Virus record (IMG/VR): IMGVR_UViG_2537562172_000009
Location: 1 to 32,147 of that record
From: a virus
Lineage: Duplodnaviria; Heunggongvirae; Uroviricota; Caudoviricetes
Direction: 5' to 3' (one strand)
DNA length: 32,147 nt
In this document: positions 4,514 through 17,355 of the stretch, one piece after another
Position numbering within the stretch: position 1 is the first letter of the stretch
How the letters are laid out: each line of letters begins with the position of its first letter
Made by a program: the position numbers and the translations under genes
Notes under the pieces: generated by a model
Seen by the model: only the letters and a program-made list of their open reading frames with translations
Told to the model about the DNA's origin: nothing
Databases searched by the model: none

Positions 4514-6736
4514 TTGGCTGTTCAATTCGCTTATCCGTGGAACGTCCCACGGTCGGCAATCTCCAGCCCATACCTTACTTATGAGCAACAGCATCGCCGC
4601 GACCGTATGTTCGCGGCTTTGCTGCATGCAAAAAAGGTGCTTTCTCTCCAGCCCGACTGCGTGCGGTTAGATGTTTATCGCACTGCTGCGGTGCTGGAGC
4701 AAAATCAGGGTAGTCAACGAGCCAATGCATTTTTAATCAGCTTCTGCAAAAAGGCATTGCCGCGTCTTGAACTGGTCGCAAAAAAATACGAATGCGCTGG
4801 TATCAACAGCAAGGTATCAACCGCTGTTTTTGGAAGTCATTTTGATACTCAGCAAATGCAATATCTGTCGTCACGCATGGTTAATATGGTCGCCCGATAT
4901 AACCGTCTCCCGGACATGTCGCGCGCTGATGTTGACCTGTTGGCCGCTGATATTGCTAATTTCATTCGTGGTGAACTTGCCAACATTAATGACCACGGAT
5001 TCGGCGAGCTTAAAACGCTGTACACCTGGTATATTCGTGCTGGCTTTATTTCCCTCCAATTCAACGTTATCCCACCACATTGGGAGCGGGTTGAAAAAAA
5101 ATATGTCGGTGCGGATGAAATCGCACCGGCTATCGCCAAAATGTTTAACGATGGGTGGTGGCGCGGTCGTTTGCGCCGTGTAGCAGCTACGTGGCGCGAA
5201 CACCTGCAAATTGCAGTCGGCAACGTCAGTAAGAAAAAAAACACTTACGCGAGTAAAAACTGCGTGACTGACTGGCGTGAACAAAAGCGCCGCACTCGTG
5301 AATTTCTCAAAGGTCTGGATCTCGAAGACGAAGACGGCAACCGTATCAGCCTAATTGAAAAATATGATGGCTCAGTTGCTAACCCTGCGATTCGCCGCTG
5401 TGAGCTCATGACCCGCATTCGTGGGTTTGAAAACATCTGTAATGAGCTCGGTTATGTCGGTGAGTTTTACACTCTAACCGCGCCGTCAAAATATCACGCC
5501 ACGACTAAAGCCGGTTACCGTAACAGCAAATGGAGCGGTGCCAGCCCGGCTGACACGCAAAACTATCTAACCGGTATCTGGGCGCGTATCCGTGCCAAAC
5601 TACATCGGGAAGATGTCCGTATTTTCGGTATTCGTGTCGCCGAGCCCCATCACGACGGCACTCCACACTGGCACATGCTGATGTTCATGCTGCCGGAAGA
5701 TGTTGAATATGTTCGCTCCATCGTCCGTAAATACGCATGGAAAGAAGACCGCCACGAACTGAAAAGCGATAAATCCAAAAAAGCACGTTTCCACGCGGAG
5801 TCCATTGACCCGGAGAAAGGCAGCGCAACCGGCTATGTTGCTAAATACATTTCAAAAAATATCGACGGTTATGCTCTCGATGGTGAAACCGATGATGAAA
5901 GCGGTGAGCTGCTGAAAGAGACAGCCCCCGCCGTTTCAGCATGGGCTGCGCGCTGGCACATCCGTCAGTTTCAGTTTATTGGTGGTGCGCCGGTGACGGT
6001 TTACCGTGAGTTGCGTCGCCTCGCTGATACCGAAACCGCGCACGGTCTGAGCGTTGAGTTTGCCGCCGTCCATGATGCCGCCGACGCTGGTGACTGGGCT
6101 GGTTATGTTAATGCTCAGGGTGGGCCGTTTGTCCGTCGCGATGATTTACAGGTGCGCACACTGTATGAACCGCGTACCGAGCTTAATCAGTACGGTGAGG
6201 AAACGGTATGTATTAAGGGGGTCTACGATTCCTCCATAGGTGCAGGAAGCCCGATTTTAACCCGGCTCACTCAGTGGAAGATTGTTCCGAAGCGTGCTGT
6301 TGATTTGGCCGTTGACCTTCAGGACGGCAAAGCCGTCCCTCGGAGTTCTGTCAATAACTGTACGGGAAGCGAAAACGAGCCACCGGAACTTGATTTATCA
6401 AAACCGCTGAGTCGACGTGAAAAGCGAGAGCTGACAAATCGACTCAGGAAGAAAAAACCAGCGACAAGGCAAAAATTCACACACGGAAGGGATGAACAAA
6501 ACGACTCTATAGAAAGAACCATCGACGAAATACACCTGACCACTGGCGTAACGATAAGCCGGGGTGAAGCCCTGCACCTAATGGCGGGTGGCAAATGCTG
6601 CTTTGAAGGGAAATGGCTTAGAGGAACAGCCAATGGTGAGCTATTTAGAGCCGCGCAGCCTTACTCCGCCAAAGCTAAGAATATCCTTAAGCGAGTTGCA
6701 AAACTGGCAGAAACGGCAAAATTACCACGTGATTAA
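4514..6736 (+). CDS. A: replication initiation endonuclease (P2 gpA / 186 RepA family, HUH rolling-circle initiator)
   Basis: 740 aa; HUH-type metal-binding motif GTPHWHMLMF and active-site tyrosine motif ATGYVAKYISKN; follows the small early ORFs as in P2. Start as given is a TTG (4514) one codon after the upstream stop, with a G-run SD; the next in-frame ATG is 31 codons downstream. Confidence 0.88.
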   Translation: MAVQFAYPWNVPRSAISSPYLTYEQQHRRDRMFAALLHAKKVLSLQPDCVRLDVYRTAAVLEQNQGSQRANAFLISFCKKALPRLELVAKKYECAGINSKVSTAVFGSHFDTQQMQYLSSRMVNMVARYNRLPDMSRADVDLLAADIANFIRGELANINDHGFGELKTLYTWYIRAGFISLQFNVIPPHWERVEKKYVGADEIAPAIAKMFNDGWWRGRLRRVAATWREHLQIAVGNVSKKKNTYASKNCVTDWREQKRRTREFLKGLDLEDEDGNRISLIEKYDGSVANPAIRRCELMTRIRGFENICNELGYVGEFYTLTAPSKYHATTKAGYRNSKWSGASPADTQNYLTGIWARIRAKLHREDVRIFGIRVAEPHHDGTPHWHMLMFMLPEDVEYVRSIVRKYAWKEDRHELKSDKSKKARFHAESIDPEKGSATGYVAKYISKNIDGYALDGETDDESGELLKETAPAVSAWAARWHIRQFQFIGGAPVTVYRELRRLADTETAHGLSVEFAAVHDAADAGDWAGYVNAQGGPFVRRDDLQVRTLYEPRTELNQYGEETVCIKGVYDSSIGAGSPILTRLTQWKIVPKRAVDLAVDLQDGKAVPRSSVNNCTGSENEPPELDLSKPLSRREKRELTNRLRKKKPATRQKFTHGRDEQNDSIERTIDEIHLTTGVTISRGEALHLMAGGKCCFEGKWLRGTANGELFRAAQPYSAKAKNILKRVAKLAETAKLPRD

Positions 6737-7067: not shown

Positions 7068-7094
7068 AACCGGCACCATGATTGCCGGTTTTTT
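7068..7094 (+). terminator. rho-independent terminator ending the early/replication transcript
   Basis: AACCGGCA-CCATGAT-TGCCGGTT followed by TTTT(ATGTGT): GC-rich core stem, 7-nt loop, U-run. Confidence 0.65.
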
Positions 7095-7194
7095 ATGTGT
7101 TCTATCAAAAGGATGGGGTCTGACATTCTCATCATCAGAATTGTGTTATTTTAGTGCAACTCATTCGTCGTTAGACATTGTAAGGGCAATGTAT

Positions 7195-7905
7195 ATGAAA
7201 CCAAGCACACACTGCGTTTATTGTGGTGTTCTCATGAACAGGATTGAAAATCACCCCCACTGCCGCTCAGTTGAACACATGATCCCGCAAGTTTCAGTCT
7301 CCATTCATAGAACCAACGGCGAAGGCGATTTCCATGTATGCAAAAAGTGCAATGCCGATAAAAGCCGAATTGACGAGGTATTGGGTGTCATTTGCCGCAT
7401 GGTTGGTGAGCACTCAACAGGCAGTTTCGATGCTATCAATAAATTCAAAAATGCTCTTAAAAGAAATGATTCAAAATTCCGCGAGGCATTCCAAAGTGTT
7501 AAACATACAGGAAGAGGTGCGCAGATAACCTTACCCCTTGAAGGCAAAGAGATTTATCGATATGGCTCGTGGTTAGCAAAGGGCGTCTTTTTCTTAGAGT
7601 ATGAGCAGTTGTTGCCGCCAGATAAATTAATCTGGGTAAATATCGTTCGCCATGATGAAGTAATGGCTATTAGAGACATGTATAGAAATCAGCGTGGTTC
7701 TGAAGCTTTTGAGGACTTGTCCAAAAACAGCAATGTGCCAAACATTAACGGGGAATCTTTCCTGATTGTTGGCCGTGAAGCTAAGGAAATGTTCATATGT
7801 TTCAATCGCGTAATGATGTTCCATATAAAAATATTAGATAAGTCATTCATTAATCAAAAAAAATGCAAAAAATCACTACTTATGCTTGATAAGAGAATTC
7901 GATAA
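7195..7905 (+). CDS. HNH-motif nuclease-domain protein with uncharacterised C-terminal domain (accessory)
   Basis: 236 aa from the ATG at 7195 (SD TAAGGG 8 nt upstream; the ORF-track start at 7078 lies inside the terminator loop). N-terminus carries CxxC (CVYCG), EH (SVEHMIPQ) and H-x-CxxC-N (HVCKKCNADK), the HNH/zinc-finger nuclease arrangement. AT-rich. Confidence 0.65.
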   Translation: MKPSTHCVYCGVLMNRIENHPHCRSVEHMIPQVSVSIHRTNGEGDFHVCKKCNADKSRIDEVLGVICRMVGEHSTGSFDAINKFKNALKRNDSKFREAFQSVKHTGRGAQITLPLEGKEIYRYGSWLAKGVFFLEYEQLLPPDKLIWVNIVRHDEVMAIRDMYRNQRGSEAFEDLSKNSNVPNINGESFLIVGREAKEMFICFNRVMMFHIKILDKSFINQKKCKKSLLMLDKRIR

Positions 7906-8093
7906 AAATTTGAGATTAGGTAGATGCGGTTTGGCATTTGTCGCATGCGTTGAACTCACCACTCTTTCTGTGGGTATCTATTCGTTGGTAGCCGGTAGCC
8001 TTATGTAAAGCCACGCGGTTTGCTTTTAGTGGAATAGTTTTCATTGATTATTGTAAGATTGAGATCTTTATCTTAAAGAGGATTTTGCTACGT

Positions 8094-9701
8094 ATGTCTG
8101 CACAAAGCATATCAAGCCTTTTGAAGGCTAATAAATGGATCGATACGAATGTAGGTAAGTTTGAGTTTAAAAAAGAAATTGGTGAAGGGGGCAATAGCAA
8201 CGTGTTCCTTTTTTCTAATTCAGGGCATGATTTTGCAATAAAATTCTTAAAGCCAAGTAAAGATCATAGAAAAACAGATAGGTTTAAAGATGAGTTTTTT
8301 TGTGTATCTCAAATGCCATCCAACAAATACATTGTACAATACTACCACTTAGATAAAATAACAATCGATGATGTTGATTATTACATCATTATCATGAAGC
8401 CATACGCTCGGTCCTTAAAAAAAGATTTTGCCAGTACAAACTCTGCTGAAGAATATGAACGCGATGTGCGGAAATTATTTAATCATTTATTTAATGGGTT
8501 AAGACATATTCATAGCCATGGCGTTATTCATAGAGATCTTAAGCCTGAAAATATTTTTATTGACAGTGCTACCGACTCTTATGTAATCGGAGACTTTGGA
8601 ATATCAAGATTCGATGATGAGTTTTTTGCACGTTTGTCCCAGACCAGAGAAAGTGAACGATTGGCAAATTATAAATTTTCCGCACCAGAACAGTCATCGG
8701 GAAATCATGAGATCACTGTACGTAGCGATATTTACGCGCTCGGTCAGATTATGCAATATTTTAGTACTGGAGATGTGAGCAAGGGCAACGGAAGAGAAAA
8801 ATTATCCTATAGTAATGTTAGCGAGTTTATTGCCATTCTGGATGATATTATAGGGAAGTGTATCATGCACAACCCCAACGACAGATTCTCTTCTTTGGAT
8901 GATATGGCTGAATATTATAAATCGAAACTTGAATCTAATAAAAGATTAAAAGAGGCCCAGTTTAGGCAAAAAGAAGAGTCGGAAATGTGGGGTTTCCTTC
9001 ATGCATTTGATGACGCAATAGTAAGATCTGTCCCCCATATAAATAGAGTGGAAAAAATCACTTCGGATTTAGACATTGAATTATTTCTTTCAAGCATTGA
9101 TGGCACTATTAGCACAGAAAACACAAAAGATTCACTCTGGATGATTAAGTCGGATGGTGGGGATCTAAACTACTACGGGTCAAAATTAAAGCAAGGCAAA
9201 TACTTTGAGATAAACTTTGGTGGGTTCATCACTGAAGTGAATATAGATTCAATTGATGTATATTATGATAGCCACTATCATCATAAAAACTTCTTCATAA
9301 TCATCATCAGTGGCATGCCTCCTTTCGAATTTAACGACATATCGGACTTATCAAAGAAAAAGATGAGAAGTAAAATAACCTCAAAAGATGATTATTGTAT
9401 TGAGTGGAATGGGTATTGTTTAGATCCTAACGATGTAAGAAATAAATACGTAAAAATTGAAGGGACAACATATAGGGTTAGTCACGAGGATTTCAAGGAT
9501 GTACATCGCTGTATAAAAAGAGATGCATTCCTTGTTGTTCCAACCGGTACACCATCATCACATATGAATGATCGGTCTGTTGCAACGGACCTAATAAATG
9601 CGTGCTTAACGAACCCAAATGGACTAGTTACAACAGATGTAGACCTTTATTTGAGAAGAATCAGGGACCATTATCAGTCTTGGATTCGTAACAGCTTGTA
9701 G
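8094..9701 (+). CDS. Hanks-type Ser/Thr protein kinase fused to an about 250-aa domain of unknown function (accessory)
   Basis: 535 aa from the ATG at 8094 (SD AAAGAGGA upstream; the TTG at 8085 is too close to it). Gly-rich loop IGEGGNSNVF, beta3 Lys in FAIKFLK, catalytic loop HRDLKPEN, DFG (VIGDFGIS), APE (FSAPE), subdomain IX DIYALG. Very AT-rich. Confidence 0.8.
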   Translation: MSAQSISSLLKANKWIDTNVGKFEFKKEIGEGGNSNVFLFSNSGHDFAIKFLKPSKDHRKTDRFKDEFFCVSQMPSNKYIVQYYHLDKITIDDVDYYIIIMKPYARSLKKDFASTNSAEEYERDVRKLFNHLFNGLRHIHSHGVIHRDLKPENIFIDSATDSYVIGDFGISRFDDEFFARLSQTRESERLANYKFSAPEQSSGNHEITVRSDIYALGQIMQYFSTGDVSKGNGREKLSYSNVSEFIAILDDIIGKCIMHNPNDRFSSLDDMAEYYKSKLESNKRLKEAQFRQKEESEMWGFLHAFDDAIVRSVPHINRVEKITSDLDIELFLSSIDGTISTENTKDSLWMIKSDGGDLNYYGSKLKQGKYFEINFGGFITEVNIDSIDVYYDSHYHHKNFFIIIISGMPPFEFNDISDLSKKKMRSKITSKDDYCIEWNGYCLDPNDVRNKYVKIEGTTYRVSHEDFKDVHRCIKRDAFLVVPTGTPSSHMNDRSVATDLINACLTNPNGLVTTDVDLYLRRIRDHYQSWIRNSL

Positions 9702-9920
9702 CCCGATGAGCAAAGTTAAGAATCAGCCAATCAATCCGGCAGCGTGAATGTTGGTTTTTTATGCCATTTTTCCGCCATTTCTCCATTTTCTAGCCATGCA
9801 TGCATCTGGTGCATGGTTTTGCATGCGTCAGTGCTGCCCGTTCCGTACGTGCGCCGCCAGAGCTGGCGCGGCTTCGGAGTGGTCATGCAATTGCATTAAA
9901 ACCGACCCATAAAGCGGGCA

Positions 9921-9939
9921 GGCGTGGCGGGGAAAGCAT
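9921..9939. other. cos site (cohesive-end sequence of P2/186 type)
   Basis: GGCGTGGCGGGGAAAGCAT followed by TGCGCGC, matching the 19-nt cohesive ends of 186 (and differing at 2 positions from P2's) as I remember them; located between the replication/accessory side and the portal gene, where cos lies in a P2 prophage. Confidence 0.6.
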
Positions 9940-10048
9940 TGCGCGCAGCACACACTTGCAATTTGATATTTTTGGTGTAAAAAATCGGTGTCAATGAGTA
10001 GAAGATGAAAAAATAATAACCAAAGGTTACTAAATCAAGGATGTGCCG

Positions 10049-10867
10049 ATGAAAGTTAGCTATGACGTTGTCATCAAAAGTGGTGATCAAGAAGTTGATA
10101 TGGAGTATGGCCTTGATACCCTCTCTGGAACGGCTGAGGTGACATGCATACTAGCAGAGGCAATACTCAGAAAAAAAATTATTAAGCGCCGCACTCATGT
10201 TAACCCTGCGCGAGCGGTTCTCAAACAAAGCTTTAAAAGTTCTTATGGTCAAAACTTCGACTTGATTGTTAATGAGCCGGAATTAGCTGCCGAATTAAAA
10301 AAAATGACCCGTTCTGTGTTCTCGGAAGTCATGGGGTATTTTATTTCTGAATCTCTATATCTGGAAACTAAGGAGCTATCTCCAAAAGCTGCAGGAATTA
10401 TTGAGGAGCTTGAGGAAATTGAAGATGAACTTATTGATCGTATCAGACAACCTTTGGTAAGGATGCATAGGATAAATCTTCAAAAAAACTTTGATGTTGA
10501 ACTTAACTATAAAAAACCTGCTGGCAAACAAAGAATAGCAAAGTTAGACACAATGACTGCTACAAACTTGACACAATCAAAAATAATGCCCGGTCAAGTT
10601 AATATTAACGCAGTTATTACTCGATTTAATGCGAGAACTGGAAATGGTAGGTTAGTTATCGAAGGTGAAGATGATACAGTAGCCTTTGGTTTTTACATGC
10701 CTTTAAAGGCTATACCCGCCGCTCAAAAAAGATTGGTCTCATTAAATTTACACAATAATAATGGCAGGCAAGATAACTACACATATCTAAAACTTACTGT
10801 TAGTAAAGTTGTAGTAAAAAGTGGTGATGTGGTGAAATATCTAATCCGTATGGTTGAAACTGTATGA
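10049..10867 (+). CDS. hypothetical soluble protein, first gene of a coupled two-gene accessory cassette
   Basis: 272 aa from the ATG at 10049 (AAGGA 7 nt upstream); AT-rich; near-identical short motif close to both termini (YDVVIKSGDQEV and KVVVKSGDVVKY); stop overlaps the next start (ATGA). Confidence 0.6.
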   Translation: MKVSYDVVIKSGDQEVDMEYGLDTLSGTAEVTCILAEAILRKKIIKRRTHVNPARAVLKQSFKSSYGQNFDLIVNEPELAAELKKMTRSVFSEVMGYFISESLYLETKELSPKAAGIIEELEEIEDELIDRIRQPLVRMHRINLQKNFDVELNYKKPAGKQRIAKLDTMTATNLTQSKIMPGQVNINAVITRFNARTGNGRLVIEGEDDTVAFGFYMPLKAIPAAQKRLVSLNLHNNNGRQDNYTYLKLTVSKVVVKSGDVVKYLIRMVETV

Positions 10868-11589
10868 GAAAGGTGTTGCTGTCTTCGGCTGGCGTGATTG
10901 TAGCTGTGTGCGCCTTGTATTACTTCAACTTCGGAGTAAACGGACATTTATCCAGCAAGACTGATGTTTGGGCGCAGTTTGGTGATTATTTGGGTGGTGT
11001 CGTCAACCCTATACTTTCATTTATTACAATTTACCTCCTTATAAATTCAATAAAACTTCAAAGGGAGGCTAATTCCAGCCTGATCGATGAAGTAAAAAGG
11101 CAAGAATCTTTAGAAGAGTATAAAAAATTTGAAGTGAGATTTTTCCATTTGGTTGAATGTCAGGATTCTAACTTTGAAAGGTTTTGTGTTCAAGTTGGTG
11201 ATGTTGATGGACAAACTGACGGGGTGGTCGAAGAATTTACAAGTGGTGCAGCCGTAACTTATCTTGAAGATAATATTGTAATTTTAGTTAAAGCCAAGGT
11301 GAAAAAAGAGGTAATAACAAAGTGGTTAAGTGAAGTGGATGCTAATGATTGCATTTTTTCAGTGGTGCGTCGCTTTTATTTGATTGTGAAGTTGATAGAT
11401 AATTGCGGGGTTGAACGGGAAGATTATTATGAAACATTAGTTAACTTAACTGACATAAAAATAATATCTTTAGTTGCAATGGCTTGTACATACTACGAGT
11501 GGGATATCGTAAAGTATATCCATGACAGTAAAATACTTGAACGAGATGGAGTTAAAGAGTTTGTTTCGCAAATATCCACTCACGATTGA
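10864..11589 (+). CDS. hypothetical membrane protein (2 predicted N-terminal TM helices), second gene of the cassette
   Basis: 241 aa; hydrophobic segments LLSSAGVIVAVCALYYF and GDYLGGVVNPILSFITIYLLINSI followed by a charged soluble domain; ATGA overlap with the upstream gene. Confidence 0.6.
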   Translation: MRKVLLSSAGVIVAVCALYYFNFGVNGHLSSKTDVWAQFGDYLGGVVNPILSFITIYLLINSIKLQREANSSLIDEVKRQESLEEYKKFEVRFFHLVECQDSNFERFCVQVGDVDGQTDGVVEEFTSGAAVTYLEDNIVILVKAKVKKEVITKWLSEVDANDCIFSVVRRFYLIVKLIDNCGVEREDYYETLVNLTDIKIISLVAMACTYYEWDIVKYIHDSKILERDGVKEFVSQISTHD

Positions 11590-11619: not shown

Positions 11620-12666
11620 TTATTCCGGGTTATCGAGGGTGTACTCTTTGAACCTGATGACCTCCATGCCGAGCCAGTCGTTTACCTCCCTGAACCTGTC
11701 CTGTAGCGGCGACAGCTCATTGCGCACAAATACCTTTGCCACCTTCTCAACGTCACCGAGTGAACCGATATTCTCGGGCTTGCCGCCCATGAGCTGGAAC
11801 GGCACGCGGTGCGCGTCCATCAGGTCGGCGGCGCTGGCTTTCTTAATGTTGAAAAAGTCATCCTTTGTGGCGACCTCGCTCAGTGGCACGATTTTGATGC
11901 CGTCCGGTTTTCCGCCGGGGGCGTAGAAAAACAGGTTCTTAAAGTTGCCGAGTCCCTTCGAGTTACGCATCGCCTCGCGCAGCGATTCGACGTCGGTCGC
12001 ACTTTGCGCCGGGTCAGTCACATACATGATGTAGCCTGCGTGCGCGCCGTTCTGATAATACTTGCGGCGGAACAGCGTCGCGGATTCATTCAGCCAAGCG
12101 GAATTAAGCGCGCTGAGATATTCCGGCAAACCGTAAATCTCCTGATTAATGTCGGGCTCCAGCAGGTGAAACACGGTATCAGGCGCGAACTCGTGCGGCT
12201 GGGTGAAGTTTTCCACAAACCAGAAAATCGAATCGTCGACTCCGCGTCGGGTGTATTTGGCTGGCGAGGCCAGCAGTTTGATTAACTGGCCGGTGACGCT
12301 GTGGCGCTGCTCAAGAAAGGCGTTACCGAACACCAGATAATCGAGCGCAAAGCGGCTGAAATCCTGACGGGATAACAACGGGTGCGGAATGTAGGTGCTC
12401 GCGAGCACGTTACGCTTAACATAAATTGGCGAGCTGTGATGCACGGCAGAGCGCAGGCTCTTTGCCAGCCCTGAGAAGCTGACCGGCGGCTCGTACCATT
12501 TGCCGTTACTGATGCATTCGACGTAATCCAGAATGTCGCGCTTATCGAGTACCGGCACCGGCTCGCCGAAGGTGAACGCTGTCGTTTTTGGCGGTGCGCT
12601 GGCGGTCAGTTGTTGTGGTTTGCTGGCCTTTTGTGCGTTGGCTTTACGGGATTTTTGTTTACCCAT
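11620..12666 (-). CDS. Q: portal protein
   Basis: 348 aa; minus strand; immediately downstream of the large terminase gene and next to cos; size and position match P2 gpQ. Confidence 0.85.
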   Translation of the reverse strand: MGKQKSRKANAQKASKPQQLTASAPPKTTAFTFGEPVPVLDKRDILDYVECISNGKWYEPPVSFSGLAKSLRSAVHHSSPIYVKRNVLASTYIPHPLLSRQDFSRFALDYLVFGNAFLEQRHSVTGQLIKLLASPAKYTRRGVDDSIFWFVENFTQPHEFAPDTVFHLLEPDINQEIYGLPEYLSALNSAWLNESATLFRRKYYQNGAHAGYIMYVTDPAQSATDVESLREAMRNSKGLGNFKNLFFYAPGGKPDGIKIVPLSEVATKDDFFNIKKASAADLMDAHRVPFQLMGGKPENIGSLGDVEKVAKVFVRNELSPLQDRFREVNDWLGMEVIRFKEYTLDNPE

Positions 12667-12667
12667 T

Positions 12668-14437
12668 TTAGTTGAACTCCAGAATAGATTTAGGCTGCAT
12701 GCCGCTACCGGCAGAAAGCGGTTCGTTTAACAGGGCGTGCATGGTCGCCCATGCGATATCGGCGTGGCTGGCTTCCTCGGTGCGGCTGGCCTCATAGGTG
12801 GCGCTGCGCCCGCTGCTGGTCATGGTTTTGCGGATGGACATAAACGACTGCGTGACGTCGGTTGCTCCGGCGTCGTACTCCAGACAGCCACGGCGAATGG
12901 TGTCTTTCGCCTTGAGTACCATTGCGGTTTTCATTTCAGGTGTGTAACGGATGCCGCGTGCCGCCGGGTAAAATGAGCGCACCAGCTGGAACACGCCGAG
13001 ACCGAGGCCGGTTGCGTCAATGCCGATGTATTCGACGTTGTATTTCTCGGTCAGCTTGCGGATGCCCTCTGCCTGTGCTGCAAAATCCATGCCCTTCCAC
13101 TGGTGGCGCTCCAGCATGCGGAACTTGCCACCAGAGACCACCGGCGGCGCGAGCACGACGCACCCGGCACTGTCGCCGGTGTGTGACGGGTCGTAGCCAA
13201 TCCAGACAGGACGAGAGCCGAACGGATGGTCAGCGAACGGGGCAAAGTCCTCCCATTCCTCCATCACATCGACCATGCAGCGCTGCAGCTCCTCGAACGG
13301 GAATACCGACGCTTTATCGTCGACAAACTCGCACATAAACAGGTTCTTAAAGTCCTCATCACTGTTTTCGCGTTTGAGCTGGTCGAGGTCGAACAGGGTG
13401 CAGCCACCCGCAAGGGCGTCCTCAATGGTGACAATCTGCCGCCACTGGCCATCGTCGCAGAGCTGGCCACCGGCGAGCGCGCTGTGACTGATGTCGATTT
13501 CGATGCGGTCGGCAATCCGGCTGCGCCCCTTGTTGAACAGCTCGCCAGACCAGAAGGGGTAAGCGCCGTGCGCCAGCGTGGAAGGTGTCGAAAAATAGGT
13601 CGAGCGCAGGTGCTTTTGCGAGGCCATGCCCGAGGCGACTTTGCGCAGTTTCTGAAAATTCGGGATCCAGAATATTTCATCGACATACAGATCGCCGTTA
13701 TGGCTCTGCGCGGTGTTGGAATTGGTACCGAGAAAAATCAGTTTTGCGCCGCTGTTACCGATGACAATCGGGTCGCCAGTCAGGTCAACGTCGACCAGTC
13801 GCGCAAACTGGATGATGTATTCGCGGAACACGTAAGCCTGCGTTTTACTGGCTGATAAAAATATCTGGTTATGGCCGGTTTTGAGTGCGCGCAGCAGTGC
13901 CTCGCGGGAGAAATAGAATGTCGCGCCAATCTGGCGGGATTTGAGAATGTCACGAATACGGTGCTCCAATCCTGCGCGGTACCACTGCAACTGGTACTCG
14001 AAAGACTGGTCGAAAAATAATTCCTCTAGTTTATCGATAGCCTCGTCGCTGAAAAAATTCTTTTTCGGCTTTTTGCGCTCCCCTTTGTTGCGGTTGGCGA
14101 CGTTGGGGTTAAGGTCGGCTTCGTTGCCGGTCTGGCTGTAGCGGTTGACTCGCGCCAACCGTTCAATCTGCCGTCCGAGCAGGTCAATCTCTTTGAAATC
14201 ACCCCCTGTCTTTTGCGGCTTGGCGATGAGCTGAATCAGCCTAGCCTCAAGGCTGCTTTCAACGCGGGAAATCGGCGCGATGCCGTCCCAGCCGTCGCGC
14301 TGCTTCCAGCTCTGCACGGTCGGGCGCTTGACCTGCAGCATTTCGGCAATCTGTGGCACGGAAAAACCCTGCCAGTAAAGCAGCGATGCCTGCCGTCGCG
14401 GGTCATGCAACAAGGTTGTATCGGTGGAAATGGTCAT
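12668..14437 (-). CDS. P: terminase large (ATPase) subunit
   Basis: 589 aa; minus strand; divergent from the scaffold gene; stop 1 nt from the Q start; size and position match P2 gpP. Confidence 0.88.
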   Translation of the reverse strand: MTISTDTTLLHDPRRQASLLYWQGFSVPQIAEMLQVKRPTVQSWKQRDGWDGIAPISRVESSLEARLIQLIAKPQKTGGDFKEIDLLGRQIERLARVNRYSQTGNEADLNPNVANRNKGERKKPKKNFFSDEAIDKLEELFFDQSFEYQLQWYRAGLEHRIRDILKSRQIGATFYFSREALLRALKTGHNQIFLSASKTQAYVFREYIIQFARLVDVDLTGDPIVIGNSGAKLIFLGTNSNTAQSHNGDLYVDEIFWIPNFQKLRKVASGMASQKHLRSTYFSTPSTLAHGAYPFWSGELFNKGRSRIADRIEIDISHSALAGGQLCDDGQWRQIVTIEDALAGGCTLFDLDQLKRENSDEDFKNLFMCEFVDDKASVFPFEELQRCMVDVMEEWEDFAPFADHPFGSRPVWIGYDPSHTGDSAGCVVLAPPVVSGGKFRMLERHQWKGMDFAAQAEGIRKLTEKYNVEYIGIDATGLGLGVFQLVRSFYPAARGIRYTPEMKTAMVLKAKDTIRRGCLEYDAGATDVTQSFMSIRKTMTSSGRSATYEASRTEEASHADIAWATMHALLNEPLSAGSGMQPKSILEFN

Positions 14438-15533: not shown

Positions 15534-16601
15534 ATGCGCCCGGAAACCCGTTTTAAGTTCAATGCCTATCTGACCCGCGTCGCTGAGCTGAACGGCATCA
15601 GCACTGATGACGTCAGTAAAAAATTCACCGTCGAGCCGTCCGTCACGCAAACGCTGATGAACAAAGTGCAGGAGTCATCCGCGTTTCTGCAGACGATTAA
15701 CATTCTGCCGGTCGCAGAAATGAAGGGGGAGAAAATCGGCGTCGGTGTGACCGGTACTATCGCCAGCACGACCGACACCTCGGGCGATGATGAGCGTAAG
15801 ACCGCAGACTTCACCGCGCTTGAGTCCAACAAGTACGAGTGCGACCAGATTAACTTTGACTTCCATCTGAAATATAAAACCCTCGACCTGTGGGCGCGTT
15901 TTCAGGACTTTCAGCGCCGCATCCGTGACGCCATTGTTAAGCGTCAGGCGCTCGATTTCATCATGGCCGGTTTTAACGGTACCACCCGCGCCGCCACCTC
16001 TGACCGCACCAAAAATCCGATGCTGCAGGATGTAGCCGTCGGCTGGCTGCAGAAATACCGCAACGAAGCCCCGACGCGTGTGATGAGCAATATCACCGAT
16101 GCTGACGGTAAGGTCGTTTCGGCAGTGATTCGCGTCGGTAAAAACGGCGACTATGAGAACCTCGACGCGCTGGTGATGGATGCTACCAACAACCTGATTG
16201 ACGAGGTTTATCAGGATGACCCGAAACTCGTTGCCATCGTTGGCCGTAAGCTGCTGGCCGACAAATATTTCCCGCTGGTGAACAAGCCGCAAGAAAACAG
16301 CGAAGCGCTCGCGGCAGATATCATCATCAGCCAGAAGCGAATCGGCAACCTGCCTGCTGTGCGTGTGCCGTACTTCCCGGCGAATGCCGTGTTAGTGACA
16401 ACGCTGGAAAACCTCTCTATCTATTTCATGGATGAGAGCCACCGCCGCAGCATTGATGAAAACCCGAAAAAAGACCGCGTGGAAAACTACGAGTCAATGA
16501 ATATCGACTATGTGGTCGAGGCGTATGCCGCCGGGTGTCTGCTGGAAAACATCACCCTGGGCGATTTCACCGCACCTGCAGCACCGGAAAGCGGAGAGTA
16601 A
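15534..16601 (+). CDS. N: major capsid protein
   Basis: 355 aa; follows the scaffold gene; size and position match P2 gpN. Confidence 0.88.
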   Translation: MRPETRFKFNAYLTRVAELNGISTDDVSKKFTVEPSVTQTLMNKVQESSAFLQTINILPVAEMKGEKIGVGVTGTIASTTDTSGDDERKTADFTALESNKYECDQINFDFHLKYKTLDLWARFQDFQRRIRDAIVKRQALDFIMAGFNGTTRAATSDRTKNPMLQDVAVGWLQKYRNEAPTRVMSNITDADGKVVSAVIRVGKNGDYENLDALVMDATNNLIDEVYQDDPKLVAIVGRKLLADKYFPLVNKPQENSEALAADIIISQKRIGNLPAVRVPYFPANAVLVTTLENLSIYFMDESHRRSIDENPKKDRVENYESMNIDYVVEAYAAGCLLENITLGDFTAPAAPESGE

Positions 16602-16605
16602 GCCC

Positions 16606-17355
16606 ATGACGAGCCCCGCACAGCGTCACATGATGCGGGTCTCGGCCTCTCAAGCCGCGCAGCGGGAACAAGCCCCGCTGCGCCATGCAACCGCCTACGA
16701 GCAGATGCTGGTAAAGCTGGCCGATGACCGCCGCACGTTGAAAACCATCCGTTCAAACGAACTGAAAGCCGCGAAAAAGCGTGAGCTGCTGCCGTTCTAT
16801 GCGCCGTGGGTCGCCGGTGTGCTGGCTGATGGCCGTGGTGCGCAGGATGACATTCTGATGACAGTCATGCTGTGGCGTCTCGATGCCGGTGATATCGCTG
16901 GCGCGCTGGAAATTGCGCCATACGCGCTGAAGTACGGCCTCACCTCTGACTATCGCCGCACGACACCTTACATGCTGGTTGAGGAGGTGGCGCTTGCCGC
17001 GCTGCGCCTGCGCGATGCCGGTGAGCCTGTCGACCTCGCATTACTGCTGACCACCCTTAGCCTGACCGACGGCGCTGACGTTCCCGATATGGTGCGCGCT
17101 CGACTGCATAAGGTGACCGGTCTAACCCTGCGCGATGCCGGTCAGAGCGCCGAAGCACTGGCACAGTTTCAGCGCGCGATGCAGCTCGACCGCAATGCCG
17201 GTGTGCGCAAAGAGATTGAGCGACTGGAGCGGGCATTGAAGCCTAAGCCCGATGCCGCGCCCCGTAAAACGACTAAACCGCGCACGCGCAAACCTGCCAC
17301 CAAACCGGCGGCAAAGCGCGGGCGTCCACCAAAGGCGGTAAAAACCGCCGGTTAA
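16606..17355 (+). CDS. M: terminase small (endonuclease) subunit
   Basis: 249 aa from the ATG at 16606 (SD GGAGAG upstream; the ORF-track start at 16510 overlaps N); Arg/Lys/Pro-rich C-terminus; size and position match P2 gpM. Confidence 0.82.
   Translation: MTSPAQRHMMRVSASQAAQREQAPLRHATAYEQMLVKLADDRRTLKTIRSNELKAAKKRELLPFYAPWVAGVLADGRGAQDDILMTVMLWRLDAGDIAGALEIAPYALKYGLTSDYRRTTPYMLVEEVALAALRLRDAGEPVDLALLLTTLSLTDGADVPDMVRARLHKVTGLTLRDAGQSAEALAQFQRAMQLDRNAGVRKEIERLERALKPKPDAAPRKTTKPRTRKPATKPAAKRGRPPKAVKTAG

Follow-up and report, generated by a model that had tools for sequence, protein, structure and literature searches.

A 186-type cos site with conserved upstream TGCAT repeats in the cargo hotspot of a P2-family prophage of Escherichia coli

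The cohesive end of phage 186 is annotated at positions 1–19 of its sequence record (U32222) as 'cos; cohesive end; top strand cut at 5' end and bottom strand cut at 3' end'. For P2 and P4 a 55-bp core has been described (Ziermann and Calendar 1990, as cited in PMC5694545 and PMC9594776). Satellites share with their helpers only the packaging signal (PMC9122126), and a P2/P4 cosmid is transduced better when longer flanks surround the 55-bp cos (PMC9594776). The P4-cosmid papers give no sub-site mapping, and no protein-binding data for TGCAT repeats were found in the searchable literature on P2 terminase binding sites. The gpA–gpQ interval is a cos-proximal defence hotspot of P2-like phages (PMC9122126, Rousset et al. 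2022; PMC9519451), and foreign DNA between cos and the portal terminator was reported for 186-related prophages by Dodd and Egan 1996, as cited in PMC5694545. The location of a 186-type cos site inside this catalogued hotspot is already known; what is mildly new here is a family-wide map of what is upstream of the 55-bp core.

The DNA analyzed, referred to below as the window, is a stretch of 32,147 nucleotides (IMG/VR virus record IMGVR_UViG_2537562172_000009, positions 1 to 32,147). Judged from its sequence, the segment 9736–9946 is very probably the cos module of an E. coli prophage that belongs to the P2 family and resembles Eganvirus (186/PSP3 type). Over its whole length the window shares 88–92% identity with the Eganvirus-type phages SEN1, PSP3, and Midge. 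The cos site lies in a gap of 347 bp that PGAP annotates as non-coding in an E. coli locus of 100% identity, and its cohesive end at 9921 is situated between the gpA-side accessory region and the leftward portal/terminase operon. The genes that define this setting are as follows.

4514–6736: replication endonuclease gpA (full-length Pfam match)
8085–9701, plus strand: Ser/Thr kinase of 538 aa (Pkinase 4e-30; PADLOC PD-T4-6 9e-36, mad6 3e-35)
11620–12666, minus strand: portal gene, homologue of P2 Q and 186 W (Pfam Phage_portal; PGAP 'phage portal protein')
12668–14437, minus strand: large terminase subunit TerL, gpP homologue (Terminase_6N 2e-59, Terminase_6C 2e-44, Terminase_5 9e-27)
16510–17355, plus strand: small terminase subunit TerS, gpM homologue (Pfam Phage_term_smal 2e-40; open reading frame coordinates)

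Pfam matches thus place a cognate P2-type terminase, gpP plus gpM, in the same element as the cos site, with scaffold and capsid genes located between TerL and TerS; the true start of TerS is probably just past the capsid gene stop at 16601. TerL comprises an N-terminal helix-turn-helix (HTH; Terminase_5), an ATPase domain, and an RNaseH-like nuclease domain. The helix-turn-helix occupies residues 12–69 (Terminase_5, HTH_23) and could take part in sequence-specific cos recognition alongside the small subunit. An earlier note on this DNA had proposed that a GC-richer block between two AT-rich accessory regions is the packaging-recognition region. The GC content is 0.51–0.535 over 9700–9999 as against 0.29–0.43 in the flanking 2 kb on each side, and variable cargo is present on both sides; the prophage's own portal, TerL, and TerS genes are nearby. 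Every sequence element listed in that note is present within 9400–10400 where it had been described.

The sequence GGCGTGGCGGGGAAAGCAT at 9921–9939 is identical to the annotated cohesive end of 186 (U32222 positions 1–19), as the note had stated for about position 9921, and it departs from P2 cosL only at positions 5 and 19, the number of differences that had been claimed. It conforms to the 19-nt Peduoviridae cohesive-end pattern GGCG(A/T)GGCGGGGAAAGCA(C/T), occurs once in the whole window, and is followed directly by TGCGCGC at 9940–9946. The alignment with P2 and 186 termini that the note had suggested as a check gives a consistent result: the 186 record finishes opposite 9920, in blast as well as in the alignment of reconstructed junctions, and starts opposite 9921, so that its two ends abut at 9920/9921. 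PSP3 and EtG, as linear GenBank records, likewise end at 9920, and the alignments of P4 and Wphi reach 9919, one base before the last base of those records. With reconstructed junctions aligned, homology to 186 extends from ∼9755 through 9946 and then stops, with 85.6% identity between 9755–9920 and the 186 right end; blast homology in relatives starts on the left at 9729–9755. Homology to P2 likewise ends at 9946, after which the right-hand cargo begins. The segment 9892–9946 aligns to the stretch common to P2 and P4 and thus matches the 55-bp core, since P2, P4, and the window share the 55 bp from −29 to +26. The cohesive-end site is therefore present where the note had placed it, but the conserved stretch does not end at 9939 as the note had it, and extends 7 bp farther to 9946. 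The parts of the module are listed below, with offsets counted from the predicted top-strand nick at 9920/9921.

9736–9760, plus strand: terminator-like hairpin and T-run, CCGGCAGCGTGAATGTTGG TTTTTT (consensus scan)
9796–9805, unstranded: repeat site −124, two overlapping TGCAT/ATGCA motifs, ATGCATGCAT (family junctions)
9810–9815, plus strand: repeat site −111, TGCATG (family junctions; P2, 186, P4)
9820–9825, plus strand: repeat site −101, TTTGCATG, 10 bp past the −111 site (family junctions)
9826–9884, unstranded: spacer from the repeat array to the core, variable in sequence and fixed in length
9854–9867, unstranded: GC-rich dyad CGCCAG-AG-CTGGCG, centered at about −60 (junction comparison)
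9885–9946, plus strand: conserved cos core of 62 bp, −36 to +26 (one cluster; conservation profile)
9921–9939, plus strand: cohesive end of 19 nt (identity to U32222 1–19; nicks predicted)
9940–9946, plus strand: TGCGCGC, where conservation on the left-end side stops (family junctions; alignment)

A scan of IMG/VR for the 19-mer returned 116 junctions, 111 of them unique; because junctions were chosen for carrying the 19-mer, conservation of the 19-mer itself is circular in this set. Of the 116 junctions, 82 are P2-type, 32 are 186-type, and two are hybrids. P2, 186, P4, and six more distant Peduoviridae were also compared. The core contains an inverted ATGCA-AT-TGCAT pair (9885–9896), TAAAACCGACCCATAAAGCGGGCAG, the 19-mer, and TGCGCGC, and the region from −36 to +26 falls into one cluster at ≥75% identity for 110 of 112 junctions. 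The TGCAT at −29 is present in 107 of the 111 unique junctions and the inverted ATGCA at −36 in 67 of them, and TGCGCGC follows the overhang in 110 of 116. Directly beyond +26, at the right-hand cargo junction 9946/9947 located 7 bp past the cohesive end, the relatives begin 38 unrelated sequence clusters. The site is strongly asymmetric: 7 bp are conserved past the overhang on the left-end side, as against a 36-bp stretch, a spacer, and repeats on the right-end side.

Upstream of the core, TGCAT(G) motifs occupy offsets −124, −111, and −101 in addition to −29 and the inverted copy at −36. TGCAT or ATGCA is matched eight times within 101 bp, compared with a maximum of three elsewhere in the window, and a cluster of eight was reached in none of 1000 first-order Markov simulations. 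The three GCATG copies claimed at ∼10–14 bp spacing begin at 9798, 9811, and 9821, at intervals of 13 and 10 bp. Among the unique junctions, TGCAT (±1) occurs at −111 in 83 of 111, with a per-position information of 0.8–1.2 bits, and at −101 in 90 of 111; both are present in 78 junctions, and in 77 of these their spacing is 10 bp. Conservation is lower around −124, where about two thirds of the junctions have a TGCAT (within −125 to −119, 57 of 90 phage junctions and all 17 P4-like ones), and ∼15–25% of phage junctions have no exact TGCAT at −101 or −111. All four TGCAT sites are present in 17 of 17 junctions of P4-like satellites. Five of the six distant relatives, namely Fels-2, three Klebsiella phages belonging to other genera, and one phage of Yersinia enterocolitica, have an overhang with a different 3' half and retain the GCATG repeats, the ATGCA-NN-TGCAT pair, and a GC dyad centered on CCAG-NN-CTGG near −60. 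In the remaining one, an Aeromonas phage, only the TGCAT at −29 and the dyad are preserved.

The two perfect palindromes to which the note had drawn attention are present, ATGCATGCAT at 9796–9805 and the 12-bp ATGCAATTGCAT at 9885–9896, and they behave differently from the motifs that compose them. Perfect palindromes of at least 10 bp are not enriched in the whole window (26 observed against 38 ± 6 expected), the perfect 10-bp palindrome at −124 recurs in two of 111 junctions, and the exact palindromes of the window are found in only one or two of 111 relatives. They are accordingly rejected as functional units and are local accidents built from conserved TGCAT motifs. The proposal of a packaging-recognition region is supported, in that the TGCAT motifs stand at family-wide fixed offsets, and needs refinement for the perfect palindromes, which are not conserved.

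The spacer between array and core (−94 to −37) is divided among 68 sequence clusters in 112 junctions, and the distance from −101 to −29 is nevertheless 72 bp in 75 of 94 junctions, with a range of 68–73 bp. The dyad reported in the earlier note, CGCCAG at 9854–9859 and CTGGCG at 9862–9867 separated by AG, is located within this spacer. Inverted repeats with stems of at least 6 bp occur in the spacers of 30 junctions against ∼8.5 expected, nearly all of them centered at −60; many lineages have a dyad there, among them Fels-2 and the Klebsiella and Aeromonas relatives, whereas that of P4 is of another sequence and P2 lacks one altogether. In Fels-2 and the Klebsiella phages the element at −67 to −45 resembles an intrinsic terminator, for example GCCCGCCAG-TT-CTGGCGGGC followed by TTTT. 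A simple terminator would fit these relatives, but the T-run is absent in the window, in 186, and in P4, and this reading of the −60 dyad was rejected. The dyad upstream of cos may have two roles, or a role that changes.

Within the conserved core, the minus strand of 9905–9919 can form a small hairpin with a T-run, GCCCGCTTTATGGGT CGGTTTTAAT, and a better stem (CCGCCC/GGGCGG) occupies the corresponding position in P2. This hairpin might serve as a stop for leftward read-through into cos or might be part of terminase recognition. A scan with Rfam models over 9500–10200 gave no match at E ≤ 1, and the single-strand fold is unremarkable (z-score −0.9); the idea of a structured RNA or unusual hairpin was dropped on these grounds.

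Could the repeats and palindromes simply have arisen by chance in a GC-richer intergenic stretch? The lack of enrichment of perfect palindromes and their near confinement to this lineage are what such an origin would predict, and for the perfection of the two palindromes it holds. For the TGCAT motifs it is refuted by the cluster of eight that no simulation reproduced and by the conservation of motif positions across more than 100 junctions and several genera, and as an account of the repeats and palindromes together chance has a negligible probability. A different concern is that the site is a cos homologue in a defective prophage, a relic no longer used. The window stops short of the right attachment site, so that the completeness of the prophage is only partly visible, but the core is undamaged, in agreement with both 186 and the family consensus, and the genes for terminase, portal, capsid, and replication have their full length. 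Moreover, three separate E. coli genomes, E. coli O141:H4 P13-6 among them, match 9700–10000 with 100% identity, and the deposited phage record vB_EcoM-613R3 matches the window at 97.8% identity across 76% of the query. Decay of this kind is accordingly considered very unlikely.

The more serious alternative, although still an unlikely one, accepts that the core and the 19-mer are cos and assigns the upstream GCATG repeats and the dyad to transcription, as terminators, insulators, or promoter elements outside packaging recognition that keep cargo transcription out of cos or drive the neighboring accessory genes. The scan finds a terminator-like hairpin at 9799–9815 formed from two of the repeats and another at 9736–9754, a T-run follows the −60 dyad in Fels-2 and the Klebsiella relatives, and in P2 the old–tin promoter lies just left of this region, with transcript starts ∼150 bp to the left of cos, so that some of the conservation there could be transcriptional. 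However, the distance from motif to nick is exact even though the neighboring genes are not the same and do not all point the same way (old of P2 runs leftward and the kinase in the window rightward, and P4 has the different genes psu and gop), many relatives have direct TGCAT repeats without hairpin potential, and the dyad lacks a T-run in the window and in 186. The constant register relative to the nick is less readily explained by a transcriptional role than by packaging. The retention of the array in all 17 satellite junctions, its independence of the identity and orientation of neighboring genes, and the better transduction of a P2/P4 cosmid with longer cos flanks (PMC9594776) all argue for packaging over transcription.

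If the site functions in packaging as its relatives suggest, homology to 186 predicts that after induction and circularization the terminase (TerL at 12668–14437, TerS at ∼16.6–17.36 kb) would nick the top strand at 9920/9921 and the bottom strand at 9939/9940, producing 19-nt 5' cohesive ends GGCGTGGCGGGGAAAGCAT. We infer cutting at 9920/9921 in this prophage from that homology; the virion genome would then begin with base 9921 and end with base 9920 plus the complementary overhang. The core at 9885–9946 would act as a cosN-like nicking site, and the phased repeats at 9796–9825 would form a cosB-like array on one helix face to which an oligomeric terminase could bind, through either gpM or the helix-turn-helix of gpP. 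The fixed 72-bp spacer would set the geometry between the binding and cutting sites, with the dyad as an optional element in its middle. This layout, a nicking core with an upstream phased array bound by terminase, would be lambda-like, which we infer by analogy. The broader proposal is more tentative and, on balance, rather doubtful: that the TGCAT(G) array at −124/−111/−101, the 72-bp spacer, and the optional mid-spacer GC dyad make up an undescribed cosB-like terminase-loading module common to Peduoviridae and P4-like satellites, and that this module, in addition to the 55-bp core, is the true minimum that a satellite has to take over from its helper.

The cargo on either side of the module is of the kind expected in the hotspot. 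On the left, the kinase encoded at 8085–9701 resembles the PD-T4-6 and MAD6 defence kinases, and its C-terminal ∼240 aa have no domain match. An open reading frame upstream of it on the plus strand (7078–7905; PGAP start 7234) matches phrog_31193 and has weak PtuB-like matches (E = 5e-5). The hairpin at 9736–9760 closes the operon of the kinase cargo and forms the left boundary of the conserved cos block, and it is the positional equivalent of the 186 terminator t95b, annotated at the aligned position. On the right, between cos and the portal gene, two overlapping plus-strand open reading frames (10049–10867, 272/274 aa, and 10864–11589, 241 aa) have no Pfam or NCBIfam match; apart from weak ZorB/MotB-like similarity (E = 0.002), they match only the functionally unassigned phrog_13337 and phrog_8999. 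In the hotspot table for P2 given by Rousset et al. 2022 (PMC9122126) they carry the label 'hypothetical + hypothetical', and they represent a candidate uncharacterized defence pair; all four cargo proteins of the window are listed together in the supplementary table of PMC9122126. The sole sigma-70-like promoter match in 9600–10100, at 9988–10017 on the plus strand (GTGTCA-18-AATAAT), is located within the right-hand cargo segment, upstream of the open reading frame at 10049, and suggests that the right-hand cargo carries its own promoter.

Almost nothing is required beyond +26 or about −130, which is why accessory (defence) cargo can be exchanged up to the module on both sides, and the 38 unrelated sequences that start at 9946/9947 indicate that the gpA–gpQ defence hotspot consists of two cargo slots split by a cos module of ∼200 bp. 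The cos site would set the ends of the virion genome and thereby orient the map of this prophage. The conservation map, with its core, fixed spacer, and phased repeats, offers a practical guide for the design of P2/P4 cosmids and an aid for recognizing cos in P2-like prophages and P4-like satellites. Current understanding is left unchanged by these results.

Among known systems the closest is the cos site of 186 (U32222 / NC_001317, Eganvirus), which has the same 19-nt cohesive end and TGCGCGC, is ∼86% identical across the 166 bp that precede the nick, agrees in all of the TGCAT sites, the GC dyad, and the position of the upstream terminator, and is placed alike relative to the portal gene. 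The two differ in that 186 has ATGCAACTGCAT, an imperfect palindrome, and GTGCATGCAA where the window has ATGCATGCAT; in their left-hand cargo, which is tum/orf97 in 186 and the Ser/Thr kinase in the window prophage; and in the interval to the portal gene, which is ∼170 bp from cos to W in 186, whereas in the window 1.65 kb of cargo with two open reading frames begins 7 bp past the overhang. The 55-bp core of P2 and P4 aligns throughout with 9892–9946, both have TGCAT at −29, −101, −111, and −124 as in the window, and the P4 upstream block is close to that of the window. Unlike the window, the P2/P4 overhang has A at position 5 and C at position 19; P2 lacks both the −60 dyad and the inverted ATGCA at −36, and the P4 dyad, CCGCGCC-ATTCCC-GGCGCGG, differs from that of the window. 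We know of no sequence similarity between lambda cos and the cos site of the window. The overhang is 12 nt in lambda, as compared with 19 nt in the window by homology to 186. Lambda cos (cosQ–cosN–cosB, ∼200 bp), as described in PMC4669245, is comparable by analogy only, in that it too combines a nicking site with separate phased terminase-binding repeats; these repeats lie on the left-end side of the nick in lambda, whereas the conserved array in the window lies on the right-end side.
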